Notes: generated by a model not told the origin, from the sequence alone. A DNA stretch of 64,000 nt from Akkermansia muciniphila (GCA_945898055.1 CAMDGV010000018.1:25-64024); one strand, 5' to 3'; numbered from the stretch's first letter, positions 6,447 through 52,912 are shown. Made by a program: numbers and translations.

Positions 6447-6474
6447 TAGGAATTTGCTTTTTTGAGGCGGAGGG
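6447..6474 (-). repeat. Dispersed ~27-bp junction repeat, copy 1
   Basis: Reverse complement reads CCCTCCGCCTCAAAAAAGCAAATTCCTA. Confidence 0.85.
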
Positions 6475-6528
6475 TAAGATTTCAGGAAAGATTCCCACTT
6501 GCGCGGTGCCGTTTGCTAGCCAACTTAT

Positions 6529-7782
6529 TTGATGGTTTTTCCATCCTCTCGCGCCGCAGCGCTCACCCAACTGGATGGATTTATTCCCTTCGCTGGGCTC
6601 TATGTCCGCGACCGGAATCACGTGAAACTTGGTCACCCATCGGTCTCACGACTTTCATCTGCGATCCGGTGCCGCTTAATTACCGAGCAGGAAGTGGTTG
6701 CGGCCGTTCTGCGCGTGCATCCGTTTCGGCAAGTGGAAAAATTCATCCAAGAAGTCTATTGGCGGCGGTACTGGAAATCGTGGCTCGCGCTGCGTCCGCA
6801 GGTCTGGAGTGATTATCGCAATAGTCTAACAGAAATTGGGGATAGCCTAGCTGTCAGGAGCATAGAGAAAACGCAGTCTGGCAACGTGGTGATCGATCAT
6901 TTCATCCACGAATTATTAACTACCGGTTACCTCCACAATCACGCCAGGATGTGGTTTGCCGCATGGTGGGTGCACACAGCGCGTCTGCCATGGCAGGCGG
7001 GCGCGGCATTCTTTTTTCGCCATCTGCTCGATGGTGATCCGGCATCTAACACTTTATCGTGGCGCTGGGTGGCAGGATTGCAGACTCCCGGAAAAACCTA
7101 TCTCGCACGCCGTAGTAATCTGGAGAAATACTTAGCGCCAGAGCTGATCGCGTCTCTCTCAAATGGTCTCGCAGCGTTTGAAAACCCACAGTCGCAGGCT
7201 CCGGAACTCGTGGGTAAATCACCGATAACTCGCACCGATGGGCCGATTGAGTCGTTCACACGCTCAGACGGGGGCGGGCTGTGGATTCATGAAGAAGATC
7301 TCGCGGTGGAAAATTCACCACTCGCACAGCAGGCGTTCTCAACCGTCCTCGTGACAGCTGATGTTGATAGTTGGCAGAATTATGATTTCCCCGACTCAAA
7401 AAAAGATTGGATCACCGCTGCCCTCCACGATGCCTGCACTCGTGCCGAGCAGCATTGGCAAGTCGCGACACAGTTCGAAACGAAAGCGGCTCATGGCGAC
7501 GCGATCCTGCACTGGGCCAAACTTCATAAACTCCAACAAGTGGTAACCCTTCGTCCAGATGTCGGTCCATTGAATGACTCGCTGCCGACCCTTCGCGCTT
7601 CGCTTGCAGACGCCGGTGTTCGACTGATTCTTATCGACCGCCCGGAGGATTTAGAGATCCGGCAGTTCGCTACGGGTGGATTTTTTCAATTTTGGGAGCG
7701 TTTGCAAAAAAAGCTGTTCGCCACGCCGACCGCGAGTGCCTCATCGAAACTACAACAACTCTGGATCGATTTCCCCCAATGA
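6529..7782 (+). CDS. Short photolyase/cryptochrome-family protein with N-terminal FAD-binding domain (inverted domain order, NewPHL-like)
   Basis: VSRLS..IR, EKFIQEVYWR.YW, TGYLHNHARMWFA, LLDGDPASNTLSWRWVAG all lie in the N-terminal half. An alpha/beta-like segment (LWIHEEDL...GFFQF) lies at the C-terminus. Confidence 0.85.
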   Translation: MMVFPSSRAAALTQLDGFIPFAGLYVRDRNHVKLGHPSVSRLSSAIRCRLITEQEVVAAVLRVHPFRQVEKFIQEVYWRRYWKSWLALRPQVWSDYRNSLTEIGDSLAVRSIEKTQSGNVVIDHFIHELLTTGYLHNHARMWFAAWWVHTARLPWQAGAAFFFRHLLDGDPASNTLSWRWVAGLQTPGKTYLARRSNLEKYLAPELIASLSNGLAAFENPQSQAPELVGKSPITRTDGPIESFTRSDGGGLWIHEEDLAVENSPLAQQAFSTVLVTADVDSWQNYDFPDSKKDWITAALHDACTRAEQHWQVATQFETKAAHGDAILHWAKLHKLQQVVTLRPDVGPLNDSLPTLRASLADAGVRLILIDRPEDLEIRQFATGGFFQFWERLQKKLFATPTASASSKLQQLWIDFPQ

Positions 7783-8237
7783 ACATTTTCTCATATTTCA
7801 GACCTGTCATCGTAGCAACTCTTTCACCCGTGTGGGGGAACTCGATTGCTGCTGGTCCGCTTGCTGCTTTCCGCGATGTTAATCGACTGGTTGTCGTTTC
7901 GCTGCCGCAGGGGCGAGCTGCCGAAAAAGTGGCGGCTGCCTGGTTCTTGCATCGGGTGAAAATCGACGAGCGCGATCTAAAAATCATCGATGCCTCGGAG
8001 GGAGCGCAGCGGGTAGCTACTGGAGTCAGGTTGAGTCCAGAGCAAATCATCGCGCTGCGCCAACAATTCAAGCTGGCAGCCGGAGAGCTGCGTCCGGTCT
8101 TCATACTCGTGGGCAAGGATGGGGGTGAAAAGGCTCGCCAAGACGGAACGTTGGATCTGGAAAACTGGTTTGCTTTGATCGACCAAATGCCCACCCGCCG
8201 TCAGGAAATCCAAAATCAGCGGAAGAAGTCCGATTGA
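7779..8237 (+). CDS. DUF4174-family protein
   Basis: NRLVVV...ILVGKDGGEK...FALIDQMPTRRQE. ATGA overlap with the photolyase stop. Confidence 0.8.
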   Translation: MNIFSYFRPVIVATLSPVWGNSIAAGPLAAFRDVNRLVVVSLPQGRAAEKVAAAWFLHRVKIDERDLKIIDASEGAQRVATGVRLSPEQIIALRQQFKLAAGELRPVFILVGKDGGEKARQDGTLDLENWFALIDQMPTRRQEIQNQRKKSD

Positions 8238-9481
8238 GTGCTTCTGGAAAAACTGTGCTCATCGTTGGCGGTGGGTTGGCGGGCCTCGCCTGCGCCATCC
8301 GCCTGCATGAAGCGGGTGCCAAGCCAGCGATCTTCGAAGCGAGCGACGCAGTCGGAGGACGCGTGCGCACCGATTTGGTGGATGGATTTCTTCTCGACCG
8401 AGGGTTTCAGGTCTATCTCGATGCCTACCCGGAAGCTGGCAAACTGTTAGACAAAGCCAGCCTTGATCTGCGCCCCTTCAAGCCAGGCGCGCTGGTCTAT
8501 CAGGGCGGTCGAATGCTCAGGGTCATGGATGTTTTTCGCGCCCCGCGTCACCTCGTGACCAGTGCTTTGGCGCCGATCGGTTCGCTCGCCGACAAGTTGC
8601 GCGTTGCGCTGTTGAAGTGGCGTTTGAGTTGGGTCAGGATCGAAGATATTGCCACGCATGAGGACATAAGCACCGAGCTATATCTCCAGCGCGCCGGGTT
8701 TTCTACTCGGATGATTGATGGTTTTTTCCGCTCTTTTTACGGAGGAATTTTTCTGGAACGAGAACTGAGGACATCGAGCCGGATGTTCGAATTTACCTTC
8801 AAAATGTTCTCCCAAAGCAGCGCGACTCTTCCGGCACGCGGCATGGGTGAAATCCCTCGACAACTTAACTTGCGCTTGCCAAGCGGCACAGTCCGGCTCG
8901 GGGCGCGGGTCACTGAAGTCCAATCGCACGGCATCATCCTGAAATCTGGCGAGACACTTGCCGGTGATGCTGTGGTCGTGGCCACCGATGCGTCATCGGC
9001 GGCTCGTTTACTTCCGAAGATGGACTTTTCGGAGCCTGCTTGGCGATCCGTTACCTGCCTGTACTTTGCCGCAACGCGTTCGCCACTGAACGAGGCCATC
9101 ATCGCCCTCAATGGCGCGGGTAATGGTTTGGTTAATAACGTCTGCGTGCCGTCAGATCTAGCGCCAGACTACGCGCCTCCCGGGCAGGCATTGATTTCGG
9201 TTTCCGTGTTAGGGCTTCCGAATTTAACAGATTTGCAATCCCTCGTTTTGGCAGAACTGGAGTCGTGGTTTGGACGTGACGTTCACGAATGGCGTCATCT
9301 GCGAACAGAACAGATCGAGCGAGCGCTACCCGAGCAAGCTCCTGGTCCCGGAAATAGCGGAGCGGGCTTTTGCAAACACGCTGGGATTTTCGTCTGTGGA
9401 GATCATCTGTGGAGCGCATCCATCGAGGGTGCGATTATCTCCGGCCAGCGCACCGCAAGCGAGATCCTCCACTCATCATGA
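8234..9481 (+). CDS. FAD-dependent oxidoreductase (flavin amine oxidase/phytoene desaturase-like)
   Basis: IVGGGLAGL, EASDAVGGR, DRGFQV, and C-terminal CGD...SIEGAIISG. Confidence 0.88.
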   Translation: MSASGKTVLIVGGGLAGLACAIRLHEAGAKPAIFEASDAVGGRVRTDLVDGFLLDRGFQVYLDAYPEAGKLLDKASLDLRPFKPGALVYQGGRMLRVMDVFRAPRHLVTSALAPIGSLADKLRVALLKWRLSWVRIEDIATHEDISTELYLQRAGFSTRMIDGFFRSFYGGIFLERELRTSSRMFEFTFKMFSQSSATLPARGMGEIPRQLNLRLPSGTVRLGARVTEVQSHGIILKSGETLAGDAVVVATDASSAARLLPKMDFSEPAWRSVTCLYFAATRSPLNEAIIALNGAGNGLVNNVCVPSDLAPDYAPPGQALISVSVLGLPNLTDLQSLVLAELESWFGRDVHEWRHLRTEQIERALPEQAPGPGNSGAGFCKHAGIFVCGDHLWSASIEGAIISGQRTASEILHSS

Positions 9482-9903
9482 TCACGCTACTTGTCATTCA
9501 CCTCGCCTGCAGCTGTGCCCTTGTCGGGCTGATCTGGACGATTCAAGTGGTGCACTATCCATTGTTGAAACAGGTGGGGCGTGAGGAATTTGTCGCTTAT
9601 CATAAGCGGCACATGTCGCTGATTATTTGGCTGGTTGGTCCGCTGATGCTGGCGGAGCTTGGCAGTGCCGGTTGGCTGCTATTTCTGGGGGAACGTTCGT
9701 TGTTCTTTGTCGTCAGCCTCGCCGCTTTGGCCTTGGCTTGGGTTTGCACGGCTTTTTTTCAAGTGCCGCTTCACCAAAAACTTGCGTCGGGCTACGATAT
9801 CGACTCGATTGATCGACTGGTGCGGACGAACAGCTGGCGCACCCTCTGCTGGACCATCCGTAGCCTGTGCCTCTGCTGGCTACTTATCCAAAAGTTTCAT
9901 TAA
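9478..9903 (+). CDS. Conserved four-helix membrane protein
   Basis: GLIWTIQVVHYP...QVPLH..L...LVRTNSWRT. Hydrophobic, with ATGA coupling to the upstream gene. Confidence 0.7.
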   Translation: MITLLVIHLACSCALVGLIWTIQVVHYPLLKQVGREEFVAYHKRHMSLIIWLVGPLMLAELGSAGWLLFLGERSLFFVVSLAALALAWVCTAFFQVPLHQKLASGYDIDSIDRLVRTNSWRTLCWTIRSLCLCWLLIQKFH

Positions 9904-9923
9904 CACATCATCCCCGCGATATT

Positions 9924-10295
9924 TCACACTAGCACCCCACTCGCCGCCAGCGCGGCAACGATGTTACTGGCAGGAAATCGGATTTTCAGTGCGAGGGGTT
10001 TTGGGATCGTTCCCGTTAGTTGCGGCGGGCGAGGGCGTTGGCGAGTCGGCGGAATCCAGACGGGCCAGAGGAGCTGGTTGAGAATTTGGGTGATGGGTTG
10101 AGTAAGCTTTAGCGCGGCGGCGACGACGAAGCAGAGAATCATCGTGAAACTGAGAAACGGGAACAGCGAGAGGGCGACACCGAGGCCGAGGGTGAAGGCG
10201 ATGCGGCCGGGGGTGATGCCTTGGGTGAGCTGGGCGGTGATCGGGCCGACGATACGGCGACGGAGGAACGAAGGCTTGGGCGCGGGCGGGCTCAT
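9924..10295 (-). pseudogene. DUF2062-family membrane protein, truncated
   Basis: LTQGITPGRIAFTLGLG..LSLFP...LTQP..QI.NQL. The sequence degenerates after about 80 aa. Confidence 0.65.
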
Positions 10296-14049: not shown

Positions 14050-14185
14050 AGCATCGGGCGATGTTGTTTATCGTCACGCCGACAGATCCAAACCATTGAA
14101 GCCGCGATAGGCCTCGGGCACGACCAGCAGCTCGGTCGAAGCACCAGCCGCGGTCAGTCGGCAGGCATAATCCAAATCCTCATTT
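14050..14185 (-). pseudogene. Alpha/beta hydrolase (HSL/esterase family) C-terminal fragment
   Basis: EDLDYACRLTAAGASTELLVVPEAYRGF resembles E...YA.RL..AGV..EL...PG..HGF. It starts exactly at repeat copy 2. Confidence 0.55.
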
Positions 14186-14188
14186 TTT

Positions 14189-14215
14189 CCTCCGCGTAAA
14201 AAAAGCAAATTCCCA
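14189..14215 (+). repeat. Dispersed junction repeat, copy 2
   Basis: CCTCCGCGTAAAAAAAGCAAATTCCCA. Confidence 0.85.
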
Positions 14216-14584
14216 TGAGTAATTTGAAGAACGCTTGAAAGATCTGCAACCGTGAAGGTGCGCTCCATCGAAAAGAAAATTTAGGTTTATGGGAATTTTC
14301 GAGAAGGTATTTGGCAAAAAAAGCAAAGCCGATCGCAAGACGCAGAATCGGCTGGCGAGGGCGTAACACATAAAAAATCATTATCTCAAATTGGCGAAAC
14401 CTTTATCTCCTTTGGTGGGAATACTGGCTATAAAACCACAAGACCGCTCACGGATGACCAAATCAAGAAATTACGGCAGTCTACGATCCCGCTAATGGCA
14501 ACGGACTTATATATGACTATTGGACTGACCATCTCGTGTGCAAGGATCCAGACGATCAGACGTGGCAAAATCAGGTGATGTTTT

Positions 14585-15031
14585 TTGGAAAGCAGAAGAG
14601 CCATTTCCAAAAAATTCCTACCTTTTATATTTGAGACGTTTAAAACTAAGCGCTTTTTCTTCGTCGGCGACACGTCGAAAATTTCATCGGAAGTAGGAAA
14701 AGCAACGCCTTGGTTCGGTATGCCGGGTTTGGGTGATAAACAGGTTTGCAAAGTAAATTCACAAAATGTTGCTATACGAGAAATGCATAAAATGGGAGGT
14801 GTCAAATACGTGAAGCCCGTCGAGTTGATACATCAGAACCTTGAAATACTAAAAGACCGAGATAAGTACATGTTCTTGATTGACCGCAGAATTACCCCAT
14901 TTAAGGACAATAACTTCTACCTAGAAGGTCGTCCTATTCCGATTGACGCAGCTTACAATGTTGGCGGGATTCATATTGTTGTGACGGACACTTTCTCAGG
15001 TGATCTTTCTCAACCTGACCCTCCGCGCTAA
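14585..15031 (+). CDS. Hypothetical AT-rich protein fragment that ends inside repeat copy 3
   Basis: 148-aa ORF in an AT-rich segment. Its stop codon lies within the repeat. Confidence 0.4.
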   Translation: MESRRAISKKFLPFIFETFKTKRFFFVGDTSKISSEVGKATPWFGMPGLGDKQVCKVNSQNVAIREMHKMGGVKYVKPVELIHQNLEILKDRDKYMFLIDRRITPFKDNNFYLEGRPIPIDAAYNVGGIHIVVTDTFSGDLSQPDPPR

Positions 15032-15046
15032 AAAAGCAAATTCCTA
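15019..15046 (+). repeat. Dispersed junction repeat, copy 3
   Basis: CCCTCCGCGCTAAAAAAGCAAATTCCTA followed by TCAATTGG. Confidence 0.85.
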
Positions 15047-15126
15047 TCAATTGGTGTTGCAGTGTATGGATTCTCAGTAATAGATCGTCCCTCTGATGCC
15101 CAGAAAGTTACTTGCCGAGTACTCAC

Positions 15127-15621: not shown

Positions 15622-15708
15622 AAATGCTCCTAAGTTTTTATGTCAACGCAACGGTGCCGGTGAGTTGTTTTGTATTCGTGTCTAGTCGGCAAATCCTTGG
15701 GCCTTTTC

Positions 15709-15736
15709 CCCTCCGTGTCAAAAAAGCAATTTCCTA
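15709..15736 (+). repeat. Dispersed junction repeat, copy 4
   Basis: CCCTCCGTGTCAAAAAAGCAATTTCCTA. Confidence 0.85.
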
Positions 15737-15785
15737 GCAGTCATCGGGGTTGCGCTTTTGAGGTTTGGTTGGATAATCGTCGCCG

Positions 15786-16670
15786 ATGTTAAAGAAACTT
15801 TCTCGGACGGTGATTACCCTGATAACTGTGGGCAGCGCGTGGGCCGAAGACCGGTTTGTAGCCCCTTCGTATACTGGGGCCCTCGAAGTGAATGCGGGCT
15901 ATTCGGCCGGTGCGGACATCCGCCTGGGAACCCGCGAATTGGGCAATCTGGACGCCACCCGAACTCGGTTGGAGTACAAGGGGATCTTCGACCCGGGCGC
16001 TGCATTGAATTGGGGTGTTGGGGTGGTCTACACGCGATGGGATTTTGGTCGTGATTCGGGTAATCCGCTGCCGGCCAATTTGCAGTCGGTGGCCCTCCCG
16101 CTCACGATGTCTTGGCGCTTCAGAGAAGGTTGGCAGGCATTCGGAGAGGTTTCACCGGGCCTTTATTCCGACTTCGAGCAGGTGAGTGGGGATGATTTCA
16201 ATGCACCGTTCATCGGTGGGGTGGGCTACACGGTGAATCCGGATCTTCAGGTGTTTCTTTCGTTTAGCGTAGATCCGAGACGGGATATTCCGGTGGTGGG
16301 CGGGCCGGGAGTTCGTTGGCGCTTTGCCGAGCAATGGACATTGTCACTGCTTCTGCCTCGTCCGCAGATCCAGTATCGTCCTTCGGAGAACTGGACTTTC
16401 CATGTCGGAGCCGAAATGACGGGTGGAGCCTTCCATCTAAATCCGCACTTTGGCCGGGACCGCGGTCTGGCCGCTATGGATGACCAGATAGTCACTTATC
16501 GCGAGATTCGCACGGGCGTCGGTGCACGCTGGGGCGGGCCGCAGGGTTTCTACGCCTCGCTTGAGGCAGGTTGGATGATCGATCGGCGGTTCGTGCTCGA
16601 TAAGGTACGCCTCCAGTTCAATGGAGACGGTGCCGCCTACGGTCAGTTGGCCGTCGGCTACCGGTACTAA
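15786..16670 (+). CDS. Outer-membrane beta-barrel protein (DUF6268-like)
   Basis: Signal peptide, alternating aromatic beta-strands, PGLYSDF, GPGVRW, C-terminal GYRY. Confidence 0.75.
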   Translation: MLKKLSRTVITLITVGSAWAEDRFVAPSYTGALEVNAGYSAGADIRLGTRELGNLDATRTRLEYKGIFDPGAALNWGVGVVYTRWDFGRDSGNPLPANLQSVALPLTMSWRFREGWQAFGEVSPGLYSDFEQVSGDDFNAPFIGGVGYTVNPDLQVFLSFSVDPRRDIPVVGGPGVRWRFAEQWTLSLLLPRPQIQYRPSENWTFHVGAEMTGGAFHLNPHFGRDRGLAAMDDQIVTYREIRTGVGARWGGPQGFYASLEAGWMIDRRFVLDKVRLQFNGDGAAYGQLAVGYRY

Positions 16671-17023
16671 AGGCTTCCGCCTCAGGGGACGGTCGGGTCC
16701 GCTGCGGGTTAGCAGTACTGACTCAAGAGAAGCGTGTGAAAAGTCCACGCGACTTGACGTTTTCAAGTCGCGGCGGCGGGTCTCGGCGAACTAGGCGTGC
16801 TCCGGTGGCGGACTTTCGGAGCGCGCCTGTGCTGAAAGCCAGTCGCAGCAGTATTGAAGGAAAGGGGGAGTGAGAAAAGTCCACGCGATTTAGGTCGACC
16901 TTTCGCCCCGCCTTCGATCGTGGAATATTCTACTTTCGGCAACTAGGGAACGATGGGGTTGGGCGACCGCTTACGATAATTTTGCAATGCGGTGAAGTCA
17001 GTGCAGTCTGTCGGACCCTTGTT

Positions 17024-18481
17024 TCAGGCCATTATTTCAGGCACCACCCGTCCATGAATATCGGTGAGTCGAAAATCACGACCTGCATGTCTGTAGGTGA
17101 AAGTTTCGTGATCGAATCCAAGGAGTGCCAACAGAGTGGCGTGAAGGTCATGAACATGGACGGGGTTTTCGGCGGCGGCGAAGCCGAATTCATCGGTGGA
17201 ACCATAAACGGATCCGCCTTTAACTCCCCCACCAGCTAACCACATAGAGAAACCGTGATTGTTGTGATCACGCCCATTAATCTTACCAGAATTGGCCCCC
17301 GGCGTCGGGAGTTCAACGGTCGGAGTGCGACCGAACTCACCGCCCCAAATTACCAACGTATCGTCCAACAGACCGCGTTGTTTCAGGTCCTTGAGTAAAG
17401 CGGCAATCGGTTGATCCGATTCGCGCGCAAGTCGCCGGTGATTGGTCTCGAGATCGTCATGATTATCCCAAGGTTGACCGGCCCCGTGCCAAACCTGAAC
17501 AAAGCGGACCCCCCGTTCGACGAGGCGTCGAGCAATGAGGAGTTGACGCGCTTGAGTTCCTTCGCCGTACATGGCTCGGATGTGTGCGGGTTCGCGTTGG
17601 ATATCAAAGGCATCGGTCGCGTCCATTTGCATTCTGGAAGCCAGTTCGAAGCTTTGAATCCGAGCATCAATTTGAGGATCGGGGTCGCGTTCGGAACGAT
17701 GTCGACTATTGAGTTGACGCAGGAGATTCAGTTGGGCCTGTTGAGCTGAGGGCGACGTATGGTGGTTGGAGATATTCTCGATCAGTCGATCAATTTGGGT
17801 ATGTTCGGTATTGATGTACGTGCCCTGATAAGTGCCCGGCAGGAAACCGCTCTGCCAATTTTGGGACTCCTGAATCGGATAACCACCGGGACACATCACC
17901 ACAAAGCCCGGCATATTTTGGTTGTCACTGCCCAGTCCGTAGGTGACCCAAGAACCAAAGCTAGGTCGTACTTGACGCGCTTCTCCGCAATTCATCAGGA
18001 GTAGGGACGGCTCGTGGTTGGGTACATCCGCTTTCATCGAGCGAATAATGCACATATCGTCGGCGCATTCAGCGGTTTTAGCGAACAGATCACTGATCTC
18101 GGTCCCACTTTTTCCATAACGTTTGAAGGAAAAGGGAGATCGCCAAGCCGAGCCTGTTTTTCGTTCGGTCGCAAAGTGAACGGGAATTTCCTTACCGTGC
18201 CAGCGGTCGAGAGAAGGCTTGGGATCAAAGGTGTCCACGTGAGAGGGACCGCCATTGGCAAAAATGTGGATGATCCTTTTTGCCCGCGCGGTTTTCTGAG
18301 CGGCCTTTGGCGATAAAGGATTGATGAAATTGTCGCCATGCGCTTGAGGAGTCAGCCATCCCGAGGATCCCATGAGTGAGGCGAGCCCCACCGATCCCAT
18401 CCCCATCCCACAGGTGCGGAGGAAGTGCCGACGCGATGGACGTTCAGAAGAACGGAAGTTGGGTAGCGAATTTGGCTTCAT
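17024..18481 (-). CDS. DUF1501 family protein (Tat-exported, sulfatase-like)
   Basis: SRRHFL Tat motif, GGPSHVDTFDPKP, ARRLVERGVRFVQ, WGGEFGRTP, GRDH, HVHDLHAT. Confidence 0.92.
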   Translation of the reverse strand: MKPNSLPNFRSSERPSRRHFLRTCGMGMGSVGLASLMGSSGWLTPQAHGDNFINPLSPKAAQKTARAKRIIHIFANGGPSHVDTFDPKPSLDRWHGKEIPVHFATERKTGSAWRSPFSFKRYGKSGTEISDLFAKTAECADDMCIIRSMKADVPNHEPSLLLMNCGEARQVRPSFGSWVTYGLGSDNQNMPGFVVMCPGGYPIQESQNWQSGFLPGTYQGTYINTEHTQIDRLIENISNHHTSPSAQQAQLNLLRQLNSRHRSERDPDPQIDARIQSFELASRMQMDATDAFDIQREPAHIRAMYGEGTQARQLLIARRLVERGVRFVQVWHGAGQPWDNHDDLETNHRRLARESDQPIAALLKDLKQRGLLDDTLVIWGGEFGRTPTVELPTPGANSGKINGRDHNNHGFSMWLAGGGVKGGSVYGSTDEFGFAAAENPVHVHDLHATLLALLGFDHETFTYRHAGRDFRLTDIHGRVVPEIMA

Positions 18482-18702
18482 GGGCGGAGCGGGCGACGGG
18501 GTTTGTCGATCTCTGATTCAGGAAATTTTCGAGGGCGTTTCAGAAAAAAATATCTGAAGGAATTCGCCCACGCACGAGTTCAGAGTAAGTGGGGCGGGGC
18601 TAATAGGTAAAACAGGAATTTGACCTCAAAGCGACTTGTTGATGGGCCGGTTCAAAGTCCCGATGCTAAAAATAACCCGTTTCATTAGCGCTCGGATTCG
18701 TC

Positions 18703-19218
18703 TTACTTACCGCAGAGGCAGGTGACCACGGGATCGGTGGCCACAGTAAGTCCGTTTTCTGTGGCTTTAGTGATGGTTTCTTCGATGCCACTGAGAAAAG
18801 CGTCATCGAGACCGTGTCCAGCGGGAACGAGGCATCTTTGATGGCGATAAAGGGTAGCTCCTTTAGGTAAGGTCTGAAGAGCTCTTTCGAACTCGGAGAG
18901 GGTATTGCAGTGCATTACTCGTTTTTCTTGACGGAATCCGACGCTGATTTGTGCTTTGGGATGATCTTCATCGCCAATATTAGCGATGAGAAATCCGTAG
19001 TCGGTGGTTAGAAACATGGGCACGAGCCGAAACCCAGTATTGAGGGTCTGTAGGACTAGGGGTTGGGCCGGTTCTTTTGCATCAACCGTCGACGAGACGG
19101 GAGTGGGGCGGCAGCCAGTTAGACTTAAACCGAGCCAAGCGGACCAGGCGATTTTGAAAAGGGAAGCGCGGATGGGATCCTGATTCTTTCCGTGAAGCGG
19201 TAAGGAAGGGGACATCAT
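18703..19218 (-). CDS. Hypothetical lipoprotein
   Basis: Lipobox-like LSLTGC after a hydrophobic stretch; 171-aa ORF. Confidence 0.55.
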   Translation of the reverse strand: MMSPSLPLHGKNQDPIRASLFKIAWSAWLGLSLTGCRPTPVSSTVDAKEPAQPLVLQTLNTGFRLVPMFLTTDYGFLIANIGDEDHPKAQISVGFRQEKRVMHCNTLSEFERALQTLPKGATLYRHQRCLVPAGHGLDDAFLSGIEETITKATENGLTVATDPVVTCLCGK

Positions 19219-19432
19219 TCAGGGTAGGGTGGGTGTTGAGATCCCTGCAGATTGAGGATGTCGACTGAATCGAAACAAGTTTTTCCGAAGACGAAGGAAT
19301 ATTTTTTGCGGATTTAGCCCCGTCAAACAACGTGTTTATCGTTTATAGCCCTCTTTAGAGCAGAGCGATTGATTTTCCTTGAAGCACGCCGCTTCCCATC
19401 GCCCTAGGGTCTGTGGCACACTTGGGTTTCCC

Positions 19433-20863
19433 ATGAACGCTCAGGATTGGAAGCTTATCGCCCTCGCTCTTCTCGCCATCAGTTCGTTGGTGGTGTTGAT
19501 TACAAAGTATCGGGTAAATGCCTTTATTTCGCTCCTTCTAGCCTCCTTGGTGGTTGGACTGGGTGCGGTGATATTACTCGACGTGCCGGCGCGTGATGCG
19601 ACCGGTAAAATCCTCGTGACCGTGGCGGGTAAATCTTCGTCGTACACAGTTTTGGCGGTGCTTAAATCTTTTGGTGATGGATTGGGTGCTACGATGACAG
19701 GGACGGCGGCGGTGATTGCGCTTGGAACAATGTTGGGGCGGTTGTTAGCAGAATCGGGCGGGGCTGAAGTTTTGGCCAAACGTTTTGGAGCGTTATTTGG
19801 CCCCAAACACATTCAATGGTGCATCATGGCCCTAGCACTAGCGATAGGCCTTACTACTTGGTTTGCGGTGGGGTTGGTGCTGCTCCTACCGATCCTGCTA
19901 ACCCTGACCTACGAGACCAAACAACCTTTCCTTCGACTGGCCTTACCGCTGTTAGCCTGTTTGTCCGTCATGCACGGGGTGATGCCACCGCATCCGGGGC
20001 CGGTTGTGGCGGTGGAAGCGCTGAAGGCGAGTATGGGATTGGTCCTTTTTTGGGGGTTTGTTATCGGTATTCCGACCGCCGCCGTCGCGGGGCCTCTTTA
20101 TGCTCGCTTCGTTGTGAATAGGATTACGGCAAATCCGCCACCGATTGTCTCTAAGTCGCAGTCTTTGGATCCGAGCTTTCGGTTGCCTAGTTTTAATTTG
20201 ACCTTGTTTAGTATTCTTTCGCCGGTCTGCCTGATGCTACTGGCCACGGTGGCGGAGTTAATTTTGCCCAAGGGAAATAGTTGGCGGGAAGCAGCCCAGT
20301 TTATTGGCCATCCAACGATGGCTTTGTTGGCGGCCGTGCTCTTTGCTTCTTGGTCGATTGGCACCCGTTGCGGTTATAACCGGACCCAAATACTTAAATT
20401 TACTGAAGGAAGTATTGCGACTGTGGGTATGACGCTCTTGGTGATTTCTGCTGGTGGCGGTTTTGCCCGCGTGCTTCGGGATTCTGGCGTGGCAGATGCC
20501 ATCGGTAAGGCCGGTTCAGCCGCCGATTTAAGTCCCTTGCTCTATGGATGGATGGTGTCGGCCTTTATTCGGATTGCGACCGGTTCCGCGACCGTCGCCA
20601 TAACCACTGCCTCCGGTCTGTTGGTTCCGGTTATGGCGGTTCATCCTGAACTCAATCAGCACCAGATCGCGTTGATCATTTGCGCCATCGGCTGCGGATC
20701 GTTGATTCTGAGTCATCTGAATGATTCGGGTTTTTGGATGGTGAAAGATAGTCTAGGACTGACTGTCGGGCAGACCCTAAAGACGTGGACGGTTTGCGAG
20801 ACCTTGGTTGGCATTGCTGGAATGCTTTTTTCCCTTCTCGCTTTTAAATTGATGGCGACTTAA
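19433..20863 (+). CDS. gntP: GntP-family gluconate/sugar-acid:H+ symporter
   Basis: LAESGGA, PPHPGP, RIATGSATVA, SHLNDSGFW. Start moved to ATG 19433. Confidence 0.92.
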   Translation: MNAQDWKLIALALLAISSLVVLITKYRVNAFISLLLASLVVGLGAVILLDVPARDATGKILVTVAGKSSSYTVLAVLKSFGDGLGATMTGTAAVIALGTMLGRLLAESGGAEVLAKRFGALFGPKHIQWCIMALALAIGLTTWFAVGLVLLLPILLTLTYETKQPFLRLALPLLACLSVMHGVMPPHPGPVVAVEALKASMGLVLFWGFVIGIPTAAVAGPLYARFVVNRITANPPPIVSKSQSLDPSFRLPSFNLTLFSILSPVCLMLLATVAELILPKGNSWREAAQFIGHPTMALLAAVLFASWSIGTRCGYNRTQILKFTEGSIATVGMTLLVISAGGGFARVLRDSGVADAIGKAGSAADLSPLLYGWMVSAFIRIATGSATVAITTASGLLVPVMAVHPELNQHQIALIICAIGCGSLILSHLNDSGFWMVKDSLGLTVGQTLKTWTVCETLVGIAGMLFSLLAFKLMAT

Positions 20864-20890
20864 GTCTTTTTCGCTTGGTTTTGTTATTGC

Positions 20891-21949
20891 ATGAAGTTTT
20901 CTCCTTACTCGGTGCCAACTGCGGTCCGCCATGATGTGGTCGCTTTGGGCGAATGTATGGTCCGACTCTCCCCACCGGGGCCTGGCCGAATTGAGTTTAC
21001 TCGGTCCCTCGAAGTGGATGTCGGCGGTGGCGAATACAATGTCGCTTATGCCTGCGCTCGATTGGGGTTGAAGACCGCTTTTTTGAGTAAATTACCAAAA
21101 AATGCACTAGCATCCCTGATTCTTAATCATGCCCGAGCGGTGGGTATGGATGTCGATCATGTCGCGATGGAAGCTCATGACGGCGTCGGTCGACGGAATC
21201 GAGTTGGGCTTTATTTTGCTGAGATTGGGACAGGTGTCCGAGGGGGGATGGCGCTGTTTGACCGAGGTCATTCGAGTGCCAGCGCAATGCGGCCCGAGGA
21301 TGTAAATTGGTCCAAACTTTTTGAGAAAGAAGGGGTCCGTTGGCTGCACACAGGTGGAATTTTTGCGGTCCTATCTGAATCAACACGCGCGACCCTGCGG
21401 GTCGCATTTGATGCAGCGCGGGCAGCGGGTACCTCGGTCAGTTACGATCTCAATTTTCGAGCGGCTCTGGCTGGATCAGCCGAGGCAGCGGCCATCAATC
21501 GCGAGTTTGTCGGTCGATCAGAAATGTTAATTGGGAGTGCCGACGGTTTCAGAGCTTTGCTCGGACAAAATACACCGGCAGGATCCGTTCAGACTTTGGT
21601 GGAAGCTGTTGCCGCTGCTTTTCCTAATCTTCGATGGATCGCTGGAACTGAACGAACCACACTGAGCGGAGATCGCCATGATTTAAGTGGGTTTGTCTGG
21701 GAAATGGGAGAGTGGTTCGACGGACGGATTTACCGCGATCTCGAGATTGTCGATCGAGTGGGGACAGGGGATGCCTTTGCGGCCGGGCTCATTCGGGGAA
21801 TTTTAATCGGAACCGGGCTGCAAGCGGCGTTGGATTTTGGATTGGCCCATGCCGCCTTGGTTCACACGACTCGAGGCGACACCTCTCAGTTCAGTGTGGC
21901 CGAAATTGAAGCTGTAGCAGGCGGCGCAGGGGCGGCGATGCAGCGTTGA
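20891..21949 (+). CDS. kdgK: 2-keto-3-deoxygluconate kinase (PfkB family)
   Basis: LGECMVRLSP, GGGEYNVA, SYDLNFR, DRVGTGDAFAAG. Confidence 0.85.
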   Translation: MKFSPYSVPTAVRHDVVALGECMVRLSPPGPGRIEFTRSLEVDVGGGEYNVAYACARLGLKTAFLSKLPKNALASLILNHARAVGMDVDHVAMEAHDGVGRRNRVGLYFAEIGTGVRGGMALFDRGHSSASAMRPEDVNWSKLFEKEGVRWLHTGGIFAVLSESTRATLRVAFDAARAAGTSVSYDLNFRAALAGSAEAAAINREFVGRSEMLIGSADGFRALLGQNTPAGSVQTLVEAVAAAFPNLRWIAGTERTTLSGDRHDLSGFVWEMGEWFDGRIYRDLEIVDRVGTGDAFAAGLIRGILIGTGLQAALDFGLAHAALVHTTRGDTSQFSVAEIEAVAGGAGAAMQR

Positions 21950-22084
21950 GGGGGAGAGAGCTTTTTTGGCTTAAAAACTCTTCAACGAACTCTTCAGTTG
22001 CCCGAATTCGGCGATTCGCTGGATCCAGATCTAGGTGTCATCCGGACTTCCCTTTCACTGGGTTCATCCATTAAGCTCTGGGCG

Positions 22085-22957
22085 GTGCATTTCCGAAAAG
22101 TAACATTGGTGGGCGTCGGTCTTTTGGGAGGATCCCTCGGTTTGGCTTTGAAGCGACGTGGTCTCGTGGACGAGGTTCACGGGTTTGTTCGACGCCAAGC
22201 TTCCGTGGCCGAATGTTTGGGCTTGGGGGTGGTTGATCGTTGCACCCGCAATCTTGCGGAAGCCATTACTGGGGCCGATCTGGTGGTTCTCTGTTCGCCG
22301 GTCGGTCAAATGGCCGGTCTTTTTTCTGAGTTCAAACGCTTCTTGACCCCCGACTGTTTGGTGACCGATGTGGGCAGTGTCAAATCAACGGTGGTTGCCG
22401 ATTTGGAGACGCTGGCAGCGGAGGCCGGAGTTCTTTTCGTGGGCAGTCATCCAATGGCCGGTGCCGAAAAGAGTGGGCCCGCCTTTGCACGCGCTGATTT
22501 GTTTGATGGAGCTGTTTGTGTCGTCACGCCGACAAGCTCTACACCTCCCGTTGCACTCGAAAAAATAACCGCTTTGTGGGAGTCCTTGGGCTCCCGGGTT
22601 TTGCGGATGAATCCAATGCTTCATGATGATTTGGTGGGGCGTTCGAGCCATCTGCCCCATGTGGTGGCCGCGGGTTTAGCTAACTATATTTTAAGTCCAG
22701 CACATCCTAAAGCCCAAGCAGAACTTTGTGCCGGTGGTTTTCGTGACCTCACCCGCATTGCGTCCGGTTCTCCGTCGATGTGGAGAGATATTGCCCTCGG
22801 TAATAGCCGCAATTTATCCCGTGTTTTGGGAGTGTTCATTGAGGATCTTCAAGAGTTTCGTCGAGCCCTAGACGAAGGAGATGGCCCAGCGGTGGAAGAG
22901 TATTTCAAACAAGCTCAAGAACGTCGGCAGAGTCGTTATCCCGAACTAGGCTCTTAG
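22085..22957 (+). CDS. tyrA: Prephenate/arogenate dehydrogenase
   Basis: GVGLLGGS, TDVGSVK, GSHPMAG, SHLPH, GGFRDLTRIA. GTG start inferred. Confidence 0.93.
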   Translation: MHFRKVTLVGVGLLGGSLGLALKRRGLVDEVHGFVRRQASVAECLGLGVVDRCTRNLAEAITGADLVVLCSPVGQMAGLFSEFKRFLTPDCLVTDVGSVKSTVVADLETLAAEAGVLFVGSHPMAGAEKSGPAFARADLFDGAVCVVTPTSSTPPVALEKITALWESLGSRVLRMNPMLHDDLVGRSSHLPHVVAAGLANYILSPAHPKAQAELCAGGFRDLTRIASGSPSMWRDIALGNSRNLSRVLGVFIEDLQEFRRALDEGDGPAVEEYFKQAQERRQSRYPELGS

Positions 22958-22971
22958 CCCTCCTTCGAACT

Positions 22972-24243
22972 ATGCCCCTTCCGGATCTTATCGAAATAGT
23001 CCCTCCGTTCCAGTTGCCATCGCGATCGGCGATCACGGTGCCAGGGTCAAAAAGTATCACGAATCGTGCCCTCATTTTGGCGGCACTCTCCTCAGGGCAG
23101 GTCACTTTAAATGGAGCCTTGTGGAGTGAAGATACTCAAGTCATGACGGGCTGCCTTCGTCAGCTAGGTTTCAAGGTGCAGGTCCAACTCGATCCAGCCG
23201 AGGACGCGAATCGAATCATCCGAGTGCAAGGCTTGGGAGGTCGAATACCGAACACCGGTAGTGTCACTCATCCACTGGAACTTTTTGTGGGTAATGCGGG
23301 AACGGCAGCACGTTTTTTGGCAGCGATGGTGTGTCTCGGCGAAGGAGTTTTTCGCTTGTCGGGAGTTCCTCGTATGCATCAACGCCCGCAGGCAGGACTC
23401 TTTGCTGCCCTTCGCGCCTTGGGATATCGAGTGGAATCGTCAGATGATCATTTGCCAGCCCTTATTTTTGGAACTGGCCCCAGAGTGGCTCAGTGTGAAG
23501 TGAGTGTCTTAGAGAGTTCCCAATATGCCTCTGCGCTCTTAATGCCCGCAGGATTCGCGGGCTGGCAAGTGGCCGTGACTGGGGCCAATGCGGATGAATT
23601 GCCTTATGTGGAAATGACACGACGCTTGATCGCCGAATTTCCCGAACAAGAAGGTCATTTTCAGATCGAGCCCGATGCCTCGAGTGGAAGTTATTTCTGG
23701 GGTGCGGCCCAGCTCTTGGGACGAGATCGAATCAGCGTGAATCACTGGCCCAATTCCGGTTGGCAGGTAGACGCCCGTTATCCTCACTTCATGGATTTAC
23801 CGGAGGAAATCTCTCGTGAACGAGATTTGGGAGATAGCATTATGACTGCGATTACTTTGGCTCCCTTAGCTGGGCGAACAGTTCGTTTCACTGATCTTGG
23901 TCGCTTACGAGTCCAAGAATGTGAACGAGTTCAGGCATTAAGAACCGAATTAACGCGGTGTGGTGCTCGGGTGATTGAGGACGGAGATACCCTGATTGTC
24001 GAGCCATCAGAGTTGCATGGAGCGGAGGTTGAGACCTATGACGATCACCGAATAGCGATGTGCTTTGCGACTCTCAGCTTGAAAGTAGGAGGATTGAGAC
24101 TCAGAAATCCCTCGTGCGTTCGGAAGACCTTCCCCAATTTTTTTCAGAAACTCTCCATGGCAGCTCCACAGGGACTGGGGGTGACAGTGCTCGACCCGCG
24201 AACCGGTCAGCCACTGCCCCTCCACGCGTTAGTCGCCGAGTGA
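22972..24243 (+). CDS. aroA: 3-phosphoshikimate 1-carboxyvinyltransferase (EPSP synthase)
   Basis: PGSKSITNRA, GNAGTAARF, SSQYAS, LRVQECER, DDHRIAM, KTFPNF. Confidence 0.95.
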   Translation: MPLPDLIEIVPPFQLPSRSAITVPGSKSITNRALILAALSSGQVTLNGALWSEDTQVMTGCLRQLGFKVQVQLDPAEDANRIIRVQGLGGRIPNTGSVTHPLELFVGNAGTAARFLAAMVCLGEGVFRLSGVPRMHQRPQAGLFAALRALGYRVESSDDHLPALIFGTGPRVAQCEVSVLESSQYASALLMPAGFAGWQVAVTGANADELPYVEMTRRLIAEFPEQEGHFQIEPDASSGSYFWGAAQLLGRDRISVNHWPNSGWQVDARYPHFMDLPEEISRERDLGDSIMTAITLAPLAGRTVRFTDLGRLRVQECERVQALRTELTRCGARVIEDGDTLIVEPSELHGAEVETYDDHRIAMCFATLSLKVGGLRLRNPSCVRKTFPNFFQKLSMAAPQGLGVTVLDPRTGQPLPLHALVAE

Positions 24244-24263
24244 AGTCTGAACTGCCTGTGACG

Positions 24264-24944: not shown

Positions 24945-25065
24945 TTTTTTGAAGAGCCCGATGATTCATTGTATTAAGAAGGGAATTGGATGGGGATTAA
25001 TCCAAGATGGTTTTCTTTTCTCTCAGGTACTAACTTTGATTTGTAAATTAAAGAGAGTGGGTGCG

Positions 25066-27395: not shown

Positions 27396-27495
27396 ATTAG
27401 AGGTCGTTCACCGGTGCAAAACTATCGATTTAAACGGAATTTTTGGGATACAGAGGCACTAAATGGGCTCTGTCTCATCCCTTGATTCGATGGAA

Positions 27496-33631: not shown

Positions 33632-33655
33632 AGGAATTTGCTTTTTGAGGCGGAG
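33632..33655 (-). repeat. Dispersed junction repeat, copy 5
   Basis: Reverse complement reads CTCCGCCTCAAAAAGCAAATTCCT. Confidence 0.85.
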
Positions 33656-33903
33656 TTCAAGATGCTTCGTGCCATCCCGTTTATTTAATCACTCCAAACA
33701 AAATCCCTCAACACAAAAATGAAAGGAAATGCACACTGACCCCTATTTCTCCTATTTCCCCATCTGATTAAATCTTCTCTGATTCGGTATGTTCGATGAC
33801 GCGCTCAATCTATTTATCCTTGATTCCGACCCGGTCGGGTCGCTGGCGCGTGTGCCGAAAATATTATCTTTGCAGGAATCGTGGCATCAGACTCTATCTT
33901 CTC

Positions 33904-48841: not shown

Positions 48842-48844
48842 GCT

Positions 48845-49567: not shown

Positions 49568-49602
49568 CTCTCCAGCAACCTGCCCCATTTTCCTCATTTC
49601 TA

Positions 49603-50340: not shown

Positions 50341-51182
50341 GGGGTGAAACCACCGTCCCTTGTGGTAGTTTTTAAGGTCAGTGTTCGGGGTCAGTTTTCT
50401 AAACAGCGCTTTGCTTGGACTGGGTAAAGGCCGGGTCTCAATCACCTTTTTTTGAGAGCAGATCTGGTTTTTCTGACAATTACCTCCCCTATTGTTGGAA
50501 GGATGAGGATGAGGCTAGGAAGCCGATTGAGGGCATAGATCGGCATCGGCCGAGCTTTTTAGGATGGCGGAGGGCGTTGTTTGCGCAGGCGTTCAGCGGC
50601 GATTAAAATCTGGGGGTACCTTAAGATTAGAAATAAACTCTTTGGGGAATGGTTCCGATCAAAGTAGGCCAATCGGCAATTTTTTAGCGCGAACAGCGTT
50701 CAAATGACCCACGGCAACCTCCTCTATTGAGCCTAGTTCCAATGGCCGAAAACGAATTTGGAAGTCCAGAATTCGATCACGTTTTTCCTTAACCAATAGG
50801 AGCATTTCGAAGACATTTTCGAATCGTAAAGGTTTGAATTAATCGCAATAGGCATGCACCTGAGGAAGTCCCATCGGTTCTTCGGACCCGCGTAGAGTCA
50901 TCGATTGACCAAAGGATCGGTAGAATCCCCCTTCAACGGTTTCCATCTAGCGAAAAAAGTTGGAGAAATGAACGATCCCAGCCAGATCCGTTTCGGAGAA
51001 CTCAACCCGCCGTGTCGCTCGAAATTAAAATGGCCTAAGAGACCTTTGCCTTCCTGCGCGTTCCCTCCGATCCTGAATATTTTCTTAGCGAGAATACTTT
51101 GCATTGATCGAGGTCTGAAGTGAGTTTTATTAGGGTCCTTCCCTTGTTTTTTTTTGTCAGTTGGCGTCCGATCATCCTCGCT

Positions 51183-52865
51183 ATGATTCCAAGTTCACTA
51201 TGGATCCGGTTCCTCAGTTTGTTGTGCTGGAGTGCGATCTCCGCCTTGGCCGCTCGCAAACCAAATATTATTATTATGTTGTCTGATGACATGGGTTTTT
51301 CGGACCTCGGTTGTTATGGCGGAGAAATTTCGACTCCGCACCTCGACGGGTTAGCTCGAGACGGATTACGGTTCACCCAATTTTATAATACTGCGAGGTG
51401 TTGTCCGACCCGAGCGTCGTTGCTCACGGGGCTTCATCCGCACCAGGCTGGGGTGGGGCACATGATGGAAGATCGGCATTTAGGTGGATATCGAGGGCAA
51501 CTGGGCCAAAATTCGGTGACGATTGCTGAGACCTTAAAAGGGGTTGGTTACCGGTCCTATGCGGTGGGCAAGTGGCATGTGACCCCAGGCGAGTCGGTTC
51601 AGGCATTGCTCTCCACGAACAACTGGCCATTGCAACGTGGATTTGATCGTTTTTATGGAACGATCCACGGCGCCGGCAGTTTCTGGGATCCCAGTTCTTT
51701 AGTACGCGACAACCGTCAGATTACCGTGGCGAACGATCCTGAATATCAACCGAGAAGCTTTTACTACACCGATGCCATTGCCGACCAAGCGGCTCGATTT
51801 ATTCGGGAGCACGGACGCGAATCGAACCAAAGACCCTTTTTGCTGTATGTAGCTTTTACTGCGGCGCATTGGCCGATGCACGCCAGGGAGAGCGACATTG
51901 TTCGGCAGAAGGGTCGTTACGCAGTTGGATACAAGGGGATTCATCAAGCGCGCTGGGAAAAACAAAAACAGTTAGGAATTGTTGATTCCACATGGTTACC
52001 GGCACCGATGGCAGCTGAGTGGGATTCCGTGAAGAACCGGCCCTTTGAAGAACGTTGCATGGAGGTATATGCTGCGATGGTCGAGTCTATGGATCAGGGG
52101 ATTGGGCGAATTCTGGGGGCCTTGAAAGAAGGTGGAAGATCGGACAATACGGTGGTGTTCTATCTGCAGGATAATGGGGGATGCGCGGAAGGAATCGGTC
52201 GAGGGACCGGGCCCAGTGGATCCGCCGTTTCTCAGTCTTTGCCTCCGATGACTCCGGAGACACCTCAATTCGGGAGTCAGCCGAAGCAAACCCGCGACGG
52301 ACGACCCGTGCGACAGGGATATGGGGTGATGCCTGGAGCCGACGATACCTATGTGGCCTATGGGCGGGCTTGGGCCGCGGTCAGCAATACTCCCTTTCGA
52401 GAGTACAAACATTGGGTCCATGAGGGAGGAATCAGCACTCCCTTGATTATCCGTTGGCCGATCGGAATCCGAGCCAAAGATAGGAATGGGCTGATACCGG
52501 CACCGGGGCAACTCCCGGATATTCTGGCCACCTGCATCGATTTGGCGGGGGCTCGATATCCGTTGGAATATGGGGGCAACCGGATTACTCCTCTTGAAGG
52601 TACCAGTTTACGACCGTTGCTTGAGGGTCGACGTTTCCGAAGGACTAAGCCGCTAGTTTGGGAGCATGAAGGAAATCGTGCGATACGGCAGGATGAATGG
52701 AAACTAGTAACAAAAGGCGAAAAAGTTTCATGGGAATTGTACAATCTAAGTTCTGACCGAACTGAGTCGCACGACTTAGCTGGAGTGCATCCTGACAAGG
52801 TTCGAGCCCTGACTTTGGAGTGGGAAAAGTGGGCACGCAGAGCAAATGTCCTTCCTAGTCCGTAA
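51183..52865 (+). CDS. Arylsulfatase (Cys-type, formylglycine-dependent)
   Basis: PNIII.LSDDMG, CCPTRASLLTG, GKWH, DNG, HEGGISTP; signal peptide. Confidence 0.93.
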   Translation: MIPSSLWIRFLSLLCWSAISALAARKPNIIIMLSDDMGFSDLGCYGGEISTPHLDGLARDGLRFTQFYNTARCCPTRASLLTGLHPHQAGVGHMMEDRHLGGYRGQLGQNSVTIAETLKGVGYRSYAVGKWHVTPGESVQALLSTNNWPLQRGFDRFYGTIHGAGSFWDPSSLVRDNRQITVANDPEYQPRSFYYTDAIADQAARFIREHGRESNQRPFLLYVAFTAAHWPMHARESDIVRQKGRYAVGYKGIHQARWEKQKQLGIVDSTWLPAPMAAEWDSVKNRPFEERCMEVYAAMVESMDQGIGRILGALKEGGRSDNTVVFYLQDNGGCAEGIGRGTGPSGSAVSQSLPPMTPETPQFGSQPKQTRDGRPVRQGYGVMPGADDTYVAYGRAWAAVSNTPFREYKHWVHEGGISTPLIIRWPIGIRAKDRNGLIPAPGQLPDILATCIDLAGARYPLEYGGNRITPLEGTSLRPLLEGRRFRRTKPLVWEHEGNRAIRQDEWKLVTKGEKVSWELYNLSSDRTESHDLAGVHPDKVRALTLEWEKWARRANVLPSP

Positions 52866-52885
52866 AAAATGACACGGGTGTTTTA

Positions 52886-52912
52886 CCCTCCGCGTCAAAA
52901 AGCAAATTCCTA
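52886..52912 (+). repeat. Dispersed junction repeat, copy 6
   Basis: CCCTCCGCGTCAAAAAGCAAATTCCTA followed by TCAAATTGG. Confidence 0.88.

Follow-up and report, generated by a model that had tools for sequence, protein, structure and literature searches.

Insertion sequences of the IS91 family start at oriIS and stop at terIS, ends that are unlike in function, and PMC13181058 puts the failure of termination at 1-14% of events, with neighbouring DNA then carried along; the same paper describes a target tetranucleotide next to oriIS as essential, a bottom-strand single-stranded circle as the functional intermediate, and subterminal palindromes in IS91 and IS801 (PMC13181058). IS801 gives rise to mobile right-end fragments of 229-679 nucleotides (nt) that begin with a target-like tetranucleotide (PMC3189936), and in ISCR1 the DNA beyond oriIS is variable and the oriIS region carries outward promoters that drive downstream genes (PMC6218425). 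Here we analyse a short repeat in a 64,000-nt stretch of DNA recorded under Akkermansia muciniphila (GCA_945898055.1 CAMDGV010000018.1:25-64024), which we call the window; it is contig C18 of the 4.63-Mb assembly of a lake bacterium (136 contigs, 53% G+C, genome label G000). About 200 copies of the repeat are scattered through this genome, often at places of rearranged gene order, and a preliminary description made from the sequence alone had listed six copies in the window. We conclude, at a probability of about 0.8, that the copies are orphan ends, each consisting of the last 35-40 bases at the oriIS-type end of an insertion sequence of the IS91/ISCR family. Orphan oriIS ends and one-ended transposition are of a kind known for this family.

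The repeat has one sharp and one diffuse edge. Using nhmmer with a profile built from the genome's own copies, a genome-wide search returned 212 copies with a threshold of E≤1e-3, rising to 262 with E≤1; the core AAAGCAA[AT]TTCC occurs 152 times and the exact 17-mer core 88 times. In the conservation profile of the consensus, tTTtcCCctCC..tcAAAAAGCAAtTTCCTATCAgTt, for which 177 of the 212 copies could be anchored, the information content stands at 1.3 bits as far as TATCAGT and has reached 0 no more than 2 nt later, but tapers off gradually on the CCCTCC side. The preliminary description had read the element the other way round, with CCCTCC as its tip and the adjoining T-run as flanking DNA. 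In fact the sharp outer tip is ...TTCCTAT(CAGT), CCCTCC lies on the inner side and continues into the element interior in longer remnants, and the T-run belongs to the repeat's own consensus.

The identity of the element comes from its position beside a transposase gene. A Pfam Y2_Tnp search of five copy-rich genomes led to an intact gene for a 454-amino-acid protein in genome G110, where the motif lies downstream on the same strand with its tip outward and its constant module starting 253 nt past the stop codon; the preliminary description had advised looking for just such a copy beside an intact transposase. The protein matches Pfam Zn_Tnp_IS91 (1.5e-18) and Y2_Tnp (4.9e-22) and scores 183.8 bits with NCBIfam NF033538, ‘IS91 family transposase’ (cut-off 125); a second score for motif-ended elements is 170.8 bits against the same cut-off. 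Among proteins of order relatives at least 30% identical to that of G110, the layout recurs in G168 (module 239 nt past the stop) and G045 (264 nt), where the genes, like that of G110, are full-length or nearly so. A weaker motif copy lies about 70 nt past the stop in G164, and two gene fragments, one in G091 and one (weakly) in G115, are arranged alike. The motif is absent from some 25 classical IS91 genes, whose products are at most 28% identical to the G110 protein. A Y2_Tnp match is found in 44 of the 151 sampled genomes of the order, and the motif is present in 31 of these 44 compared with 37 of the 107 without a match (Fisher p=7e-5, a value that overstates the case because the genomes are related and cannot count as independent).

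A profile scan of public genomes gave 79 loci of this transposase clade, 50 of them evaluable. In 25 of the 50, the same strand carries AAAGCAAATTCCTAT (at most 2 substitutions) at a distance of 165-406 nt beyond the end of the match, with 0/50 on the opposite strand and 0/50 in the 700 nt upstream; four further loci have weak same-strand matches. The clade loci come from Verrucomicrobiota, Kiritimatiellia, Lentisphaerae, Planctomycetota, Desulfobacterales, Burkholderiales and others. In Verrucomicrobiota the tip is followed by CAGT or CAAT, and an empty site in relatives lacks CAGT. An unsystematic look for target-site duplications around the window pairs and the plasmid copies described below revealed no direct repeat. 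The constant AAAGCAA(A/T)TTCCTAT(CAGT) is the end downstream of the transposase gene, of oriIS type, in an IS91/ISCR rolling-circle clade found in Verrucomicrobiota and other phyla. The preliminary description had thus been right to propose orphan ends of a transposable element with one-ended transposition and capture of neighbouring DNA, and had chosen the wrong family. It had named IS1380/ISEcp1, which is alike in mobilising neighbouring DNA with only one proper end. ISEcp1 has a DDE transposase, inverted repeats and target duplications, whereas the enzyme associated with the present repeat is an IS91/ISCR-type HUH Y2 protein.

The best match on a plasmid was found on the complete Trichlorobacter lovleyi replicon NZ_CP058410.1, whose transposase is 41.8% identical and is followed by ..CGAAAAAGCAAATTCCTAT about 215 nt past the stop. 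All 15 matches on the plasmid lie on one strand; their right ends are constant at ..GAAAAAGCAAATTCCTAT (query positions 2050-2058) and their left ends vary (1, 248, 376/377, 1592). Five of ten copies start at AACGGGGCTGAGG.. beside a small palindrome, with differing flanks, and the other five have extra shared upstream DNA, which on half of a set of identical copies looks like the product of read-through transposition. The four bases after the 19 plasmid tips are TCCT (11), TGAC (4) or CCCC (4). Solo pieces, corresponding to the last 33, 24, 18 and 9 nt of the element, stand in tandem behind full ends and each is followed by TCCT. As these solo ends lie on a finished replicon, short orphan ends are a property of the clade and not an artefact of assembly. 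The copies occupy 162-253 kb of the 290-kb plasmid, and comprise at least 10 that are 100% identical and four or five variants of about 80% identity.

In the lake genome, similarity to the longest right-end remnants extends over 30-44 nt in 158 of the 212 copies, over 45-59 nt in 13 and over 60-499 nt in 15, and is shorter than 30 nt or absent in 26; direct sub-repeats (AAAGCAATTCTCC ... AAAGCAAATTCCTA) are seen in right ends. Only the inner flank is shared with another copy in 35 cases, only the outer flank in 11 and both in 22. The midpoints of 131/212 copies fall outside open reading frames (ORFs), by crude ORF calls that cover 87% of the genome. Among neighbours less than 6 kb apart, 83 pairs have the same direction and 17 opposite directions, 12 of the latter with their inner ends facing. 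On contigs with a clear GC skew, the CCCTCC..TTCCTA strand coincides with the C-rich one in 84 of 122 copies, the G-rich bottom strand then being on the G-rich replichore strand (Fisher p=4e-5 at the level of copies, which are clustered). Sulfatases, esterases and a Y1 transposase pseudogene are enriched near copies, and no recombinase is. Searching with the G110 protein (tblastn) recovered only transposase fragments, on C49, C12, C23 and C85 and none on C18, in line with the earlier statement that the window holds no matching transposase; the fragment at C49:32576-32998 (56% identity, residues 12-152) runs into the contig end. The window copies are orphans: there is no transposase gene nearby and the assembly holds fragments only.

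Within the genus the repeat is scarce, the exact 17-mer core occurring 0-3 times per genome in 23 same-genus genomes, 7 of which have at least one. With at most one mismatch, the core is found in 68 of the 151 genomes of the order (54 of 99 genera) and is counted 175 times in the lake genome, 48 times in G110, 45 in G049 and 35 in G105; a reversed control pattern gave 0 in all 151. The 3' module AAAGCAA(A/T)TTCCTATCAGT is constant throughout, and the 5' module varies between lineages. The G049 unit is a 38-mer that starts TGAACC and recurs without variation; its arrays run in one direction, with unrelated genes, whole or fragmentary, filling gaps of 8 nt to 3 kb between units. The two members of a tandem pair in G054 differ by one unit plus 6 nt of inner-side flank, inserted directly after a tip, which fits read-through followed by reinsertion at a tip.

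The six copies in the window (Table 1) exist on the strands and within a few bases of the positions first assigned to them, with E values from 1e-10 to 2.5e-6. The preliminary description had overlooked two more, the weak and the degenerate copy of Table 1. They had been called near-identical over 27 bp; the copies are real, and only one of the six lies within 3 substitutions of the 27-mer then quoted, because they differ by insertions and deletions in A-runs. Shuffled windows gave 0 matches to that 27-mer within 3 substitutions. The motif had been described as non-palindromic, and three window copies indeed fold no better than shuffles (0 to -1.8 kcal/mol; z -0.5 to +1.1). An Rfam scan of the window found nothing at the copies, its only matches being to a group II intron and a ureB small RNA (sRNA) elsewhere. 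No nhmmer match to the repeat (E≤1) lies between 15.8 and 33.1 kb, in agreement with the copy-free core block noted before.

Table 1. Copies of the repeat in the window and segments of the window compared with relatives
Feature	Position	Strand	Evidence
Putative solo end unit, copy 1	6441..6479	-	nhmmer E=1e-8
Putative solo end unit, copy 2 (..AAAGCAAATTCCCATGAGT)	14180..14222	+	nhmmer E=2.5e-6
Putative solo end unit, copy 3	15015..15055	+	nhmmer E=3.4e-8
Putative solo end unit, copy 4	15699..15741	+	nhmmer E=9.4e-10
Putative solo end unit, copy 5	33629..33665	-	nhmmer E=5.5e-7; subfamily starting TTGAAC
Putative solo end unit, copy 6	52878..52916	+	nhmmer E=1e-10
Weak seventh copy, CCGCGGAGCGTC type common in relatives	5027..5069	+	nhmmer E=0.02
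Degenerate eighth copy, also in relative G015	9964..10003	-	flank alignment by eye; no nhmmer detection
Segment with photolyase-like gene and amine-oxidase gene, repeat edges on both sides	6479..10003	.	93% identity to G015:C123:1060-4591; Pfam
DUF6268 gene segment, out of the context kept in the rest of the genus	15744..16700	+	87-88% identity in 8 same-genus genomes
Core block without a repeat copy	17016..32805	.	G012:C6 matches 17016-20000 (91%) and 26001-32805 (93%)

Comparison with related genomes shows that the repeat marks gene-order breaks at both its edges. The tip of copy 1 (..TTCCTACCAGT) is directed at lower coordinates and its inner end, GGAGGGTAAG on the plus strand, adjoins 6479, where the segment shared with G015 begins; the match stops on reaching the inner end of the degenerate copy, a copy present in both genomes, and in G015 the segment has unrelated flanks on both sides. 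The tip of copy 4 (..TTTCCTAGCAGT) ends at 15741, and the DUF6268 match starts 2 nt past it. Upstream of this match, eight relatives share a different and mutually conserved gene, which has no blastn match in the lake genome. Copy 6 has a sulfatase gene (51120-52865) on its left and an ATP-grasp operon (from 53046) on its right; similarity of the sulfatase segment to G012 lasts until 52856, and matches of core genes to relatives resume at about 53165. The core block seems to be syntenic with a G012 contig, as suggested by the two stretches compared. All copies had been placed at borders between gene blocks, and this can be upheld for four places (6478/6479, 10003, 15741/15744 and roughly 52.9 kb), so that several copies coincide with synteny breakpoints, as the preliminary description had expected of mobile ends. 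Its view that the motif cuts genes fared less well: the hydrolase fragment that it had placed at 14185 has no Pfam support even at E≤1, and the ORF at 14585-15031 does terminate on a TAA within copy 3, with nothing to show that it is a truncated gene. Nor does the bracketing of accessory zones by minus and plus copies, to which it had drawn attention, have a known meaning for a family without inverted ends.

We also compared 13.8-17.0 kb with metagenome contigs from four runs of four studies. One contig of 4547 nt equals 13800-15733 without a difference. Four joints were listed, whose sides are 23-33 letters long at 90% likeness; they resemble cross-matches of one repeat copy with another, and loose ends at 15703/15704 and 15735/15736 are the flanks of other copies. 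At 16796-17000, the summed contig depth in the four lake metagenomes is about 36-330, compared with 3-14 in neighbouring single-copy bins, and two instances of the short motif gaaaagtccacgcga.. fall within 16.7-16.95 kb. The DUF6268 segment seems to have a further multi-copy repeat at its right edge.

The likeness to the IS91 family (IS91, IS801, IS1294) covers the transposase, an HUH Y2 enzyme whose N-terminal part is of the zinc-binding kind; the two ends, which differ from each other, with the start end placed after the gene, and of which one is constant and one variable; and possibly a short preferred sequence beside the tip. As in IS801, whose right-end fragments of 229-679 nt start with GAAC (PMC3189936), there are stand-alone right-end fragments, and GAAC begins 25 copies here and the G049 units. 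There are also clear differences. The clade transposase is at most 28% identical to the classical members sampled, its end has no significant palindrome, the tip tetranucleotides are CAGT/CAAT, TCCT, TGAC and CCCC rather than CTTG/GTTC, and the solo units measure 9-44 nt and reach about 200 copies per genome, an abundance otherwise typical of REP elements. ISCR1 has an IS91-like transposase (25.5% identical over 87% of the query) and an oriIS, taken from a plasmid record, that reads ..AAAAAGG..CTTCCTATACCC, ends ..AAAAAGGTGGTTTATACTTCCTATACCC and has the TTCCTAT core in common with the clade tip; it also resembles the present system in the variable captured DNA beyond oriIS, where outward promoters lie (PMC6218425). 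Full copies of ISCR1, however, are found in resistance regions of clinical plasmids, whereas the orphan units described here are spread across an environmental chromosome beside ordinary metabolic genes, with no resistance genes involved. As far as we found in a limited search of the literature, there is no published account of this clade, of its conserved tip, of units so short at such a copy number or of IS91 in Verrucomicrobia, and a literature search with 14-mers of the motif gave no match.

By analogy with IS91 and IS801, we suggest that the transposase would nick at the tip and displace the bottom strand, usually stopping at the proper far end. An early stop would leave a short solo unit, and reading past the far end would carry neighbouring DNA along. 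The single strand would then be inserted elsewhere, often beside an existing tip, building up same-direction arrays; later recombination among the approximately 200 copies, or further cuts at both edges of a unit, could produce the gene-order breaks seen at the repeat. On this scheme, the units of 30-44 nt would be early-stop products, most clearly those that start with GAAC (G049 and the 25 of 212 here), and the longer segments between units would be products of read-through or of later rearrangement. The strand bias would fit insertion of the bottom strand into the lagging-strand template. For a rolling-circle, single-strand mechanism, this bias and the placement of all 15 plasmid matches on one strand are no more than indirect hints. 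A link between insertion and the replicating strand is known for IS200/IS605.

Several observations weigh against an origin as orphan oriIS ends, or against its simplest form. Half of the evaluable clade loci (25/50) lack the strict module, and four right ends, taken over their final 110 nt, are no more stably folded than shuffled sequences (z=0.42, -0.29, 2.23 and 0.12), in contrast to the subterminal palindromes of IS91 and IS801. Units starting with the IS801-like GAAC are a small minority, most starting with TTAC or TTTC, and an early stop at a target-like tetranucleotide is not general, since most units have no such start. The strand bias is not significant with contigs as the unit of counting, 22 being in agreement, 12 in disagreement and 5 tied (p=0.12). 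Two junctions, at 6478/6479 and at 10003, fall on a unit's inner edge, a position not foreseen by the simplest constant-tip model, and the metagenome contigs at 13.8-17.0 kb gave no clean empty site and no usable insertion polymorphism. The assembly holds no intact transposase that could speak for recent activity in this genome. In relatives, though not here, genes prefer one side of the unit: an ORF starts in the same direction within -60 to +250 nt of the tip in 14 of 22 cases in few-copy relatives (3 of 22 mirrored) and in 18 of 31 in the arrays of copy-rich relatives (6 of 31 mirrored), a preference that the model does not require and that suggests an added outward-promoter effect or selection. 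Finally, 35 of the 212 copies sit inside a larger composite repeat that has inverted repeats of its own and for which the model does not account. In this composite the unit occupies a loop bracketed by the imperfect inverted repeats CCTTTGCGTCTTTGCGTGAGA ... TCTCACGCCCGCTTCGCTCAAGACGCCAAGACGCAAAGG, followed by a repeated block (..AAATAGATAGCCTGCCCCATAGTTTTGCC); examples in G000 are C38:40050-40900, C64:22450-23000 and C4:117550-118000.

The gene preference in relatives is an argument for a rival reading in which the repeat serves a regulon, as a promoter or as the binding site of a regulator, and is kept by function and not by mobility. One unit stands directly upstream of a gene for leucine-rich repeats plus a protein kinase, apparently at the same locus, in four species of the genus (G014, G010, G015 and G022), and the outward promoters in the oriIS region of ISCR1 (PMC6218425) would suit such a role. 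In the lake genome, however, copies have no preferred orientation to flanking ORFs and no fixed relation to gene starts, with a same-direction start within the same interval of the tip in 58 of the 212 and a mirrored one in 60, so that the pattern named in the preliminary description as contradicting mobility is confined to the bias in relatives. Nor would a regulon account for 175 copies of the core (at most one mismatch) here against 0-3 exact-core copies in same-genus genomes, and some 20 contiguous bases conserved across phyla at transposon ends are unlike the pattern of a regulon. The three copies at 14-16 kb have no sigma-70-like match, the scan giving one site, outside the copies, where 2.4 were expected. 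We consider a regulon very unlikely. A promoter role would be at most an added outward effect, as in ISCR1, and the copy at the kinase gene may be an old insertion kept in place, perhaps as an outward promoter. The motif read on the reverse strand, as a ribosome-binding site or promoter (GGAGG then ATG), was also considered and was rejected on the scattered distances to ORF starts.

Still less probable, in our view, is a site for a tyrosine or serine recombinase, integron-like or dif-like, at which circular modules are inserted to give same-direction arrays. The excess of same-direction pairs (83 against 17), the identical 38-nt units of G049 with 8 nt to 3 kb of unrelated genes and fragments between them, and the loss of homology to relatives at both unit edges would all suit such a site, and short same-direction sites with unrelated genes between them are what integron cassettes and integrase-less attC arrays look like. 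The unit has no dyad symmetry and no hairpin, however, where attC sites have imperfect inverted repeats; the sites here are identical in sequence, unfolded and dispersed over many loci, and many of the segments between them are gene fragments. No recombinase family recurs near the copies, integron integrase not having been searched for, and the same sequence is the physical end of IS91-type elements. Such patterns apart, nothing was found in favour of the site-specific recombination site that the preliminary description had offered as its second choice.

The weakest proposal, movement of a REP/REPIN-like element by a Y1 (IS200/RAYT-like) transposase, has in its favour that the genome carries Y1 pseudogenes in 13 copies, including two in the window, and that most of them have a motif copy no more than about 1 kb away; an orientation bias with GC skew would also suit single-strand transposition. 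It is nevertheless very improbable. What flanks the intact Y1 gene of G031 is an inverted repeat of its own (GGGGTCGGTTCTTGATATTG / CAATATCAAGAACTGAC) and not the motif, which forms no hairpin and interrupts some of the Y1 copies, and 4 of the 10 Y1 loci found with Pfam have no motif within 4 kb. We rejected the Y1 gene as mover on account of its own flanking repeats, and regard it as a separate element. The orphan ends are like REP/REPIN with RAYT in their hundreds of mostly intergenic copies and in having an HUH enzyme as likely mover, and unlike them in having no palindrome, no doublets and a Y2 and not a Y1 enzyme. A miniature inverted-repeat transposable element was rejected as well, only 17 of 100 neighbouring pairs being inverted and most copies being single units of 30-44 nt.

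Other features of the window are recorded here in their own right. Decayed Y1 genes with a C-terminal helix-turn-helix part lie at 10554-10993(+) and 35232-35658(+); the 13 copies in the genome are 81-92% identical to one another and all have stops or frameshifts, and the intact copy in G031 (L012 6480-7418) encodes 312 amino acids. At copy 5, ..TTCCTGCTAT is followed by a repeat of at least 490 bp that is common to several contigs. It occupies 33171-33664, beyond the tip, is 91-95% identical on C127, C86 and C125, and lies near a recurrent family of ORFs of 183-192 amino acids that have no Pfam match and often stand at contig ends. The first 376 bases of the window hold the 3' end of a group II intron (302-376 matching Rfam RF00029 at 51.6 bits), and a second contig of this genome and numerous contigs of relatives in the genus, often at their ends, carry bases 1-374 at 92-98% identity. 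The porin gene, urea ABC transporter genes and urease operon at 37862-50340 belong to a stretch for which no match is listed in relatives: there is none among the matches listed for 44.0-50.6 kb (urease genes) in the 23 genus relatives at E≤1e-60, and none among those listed for 36.7-46.0 kb in genus relatives at E≤1e-40. Having no listed DNA match in the 23 genomes, 37862-50340 is therefore an accessory island. G+C drops to 39-46% at 38-44 kb. The Rfam match to the Helicobacter 5' ureB antisense sRNA at 47279-47572(-), scoring 104.5 bits, falls inside the gene for the urease alpha subunit and may simply be conserved coding sequence.

The assignment to orphan oriIS ends names the element behind a previously unexplained repeat in this genome. 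IS91-type elements have been known mainly from resistance and virulence plasmids of Proteobacteria; the present comparisons show a widespread clade of them in environmental phyla, with an end that is nearly invariant over 15-19 nt. The miniature right-end behaviour of IS801 would be extended to units of 9-44 nt at REP-like copy numbers that mark gene-order breaks. A bolder proposal, which we put forward tentatively and think rather doubtful, is that the 35-40-nt unit is itself a complete minimal rolling-circle transposon, with start and stop sites packed side by side into less than 40 bases, which an IS91-type enzyme would move in trans and which would capture and stack pieces of chromosome on read-through; this would amount to integron-like gene shuffling without an integrase, in Verrucomicrobiota as in other phyla, and insertion would be tied to the lagging-strand template. 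Should the strand bias hold, insertion of the IS91 family would be linked to replication. The short conserved tip offers a simple search key for such ends, and for rearrangements near them, in metagenome assemblies.

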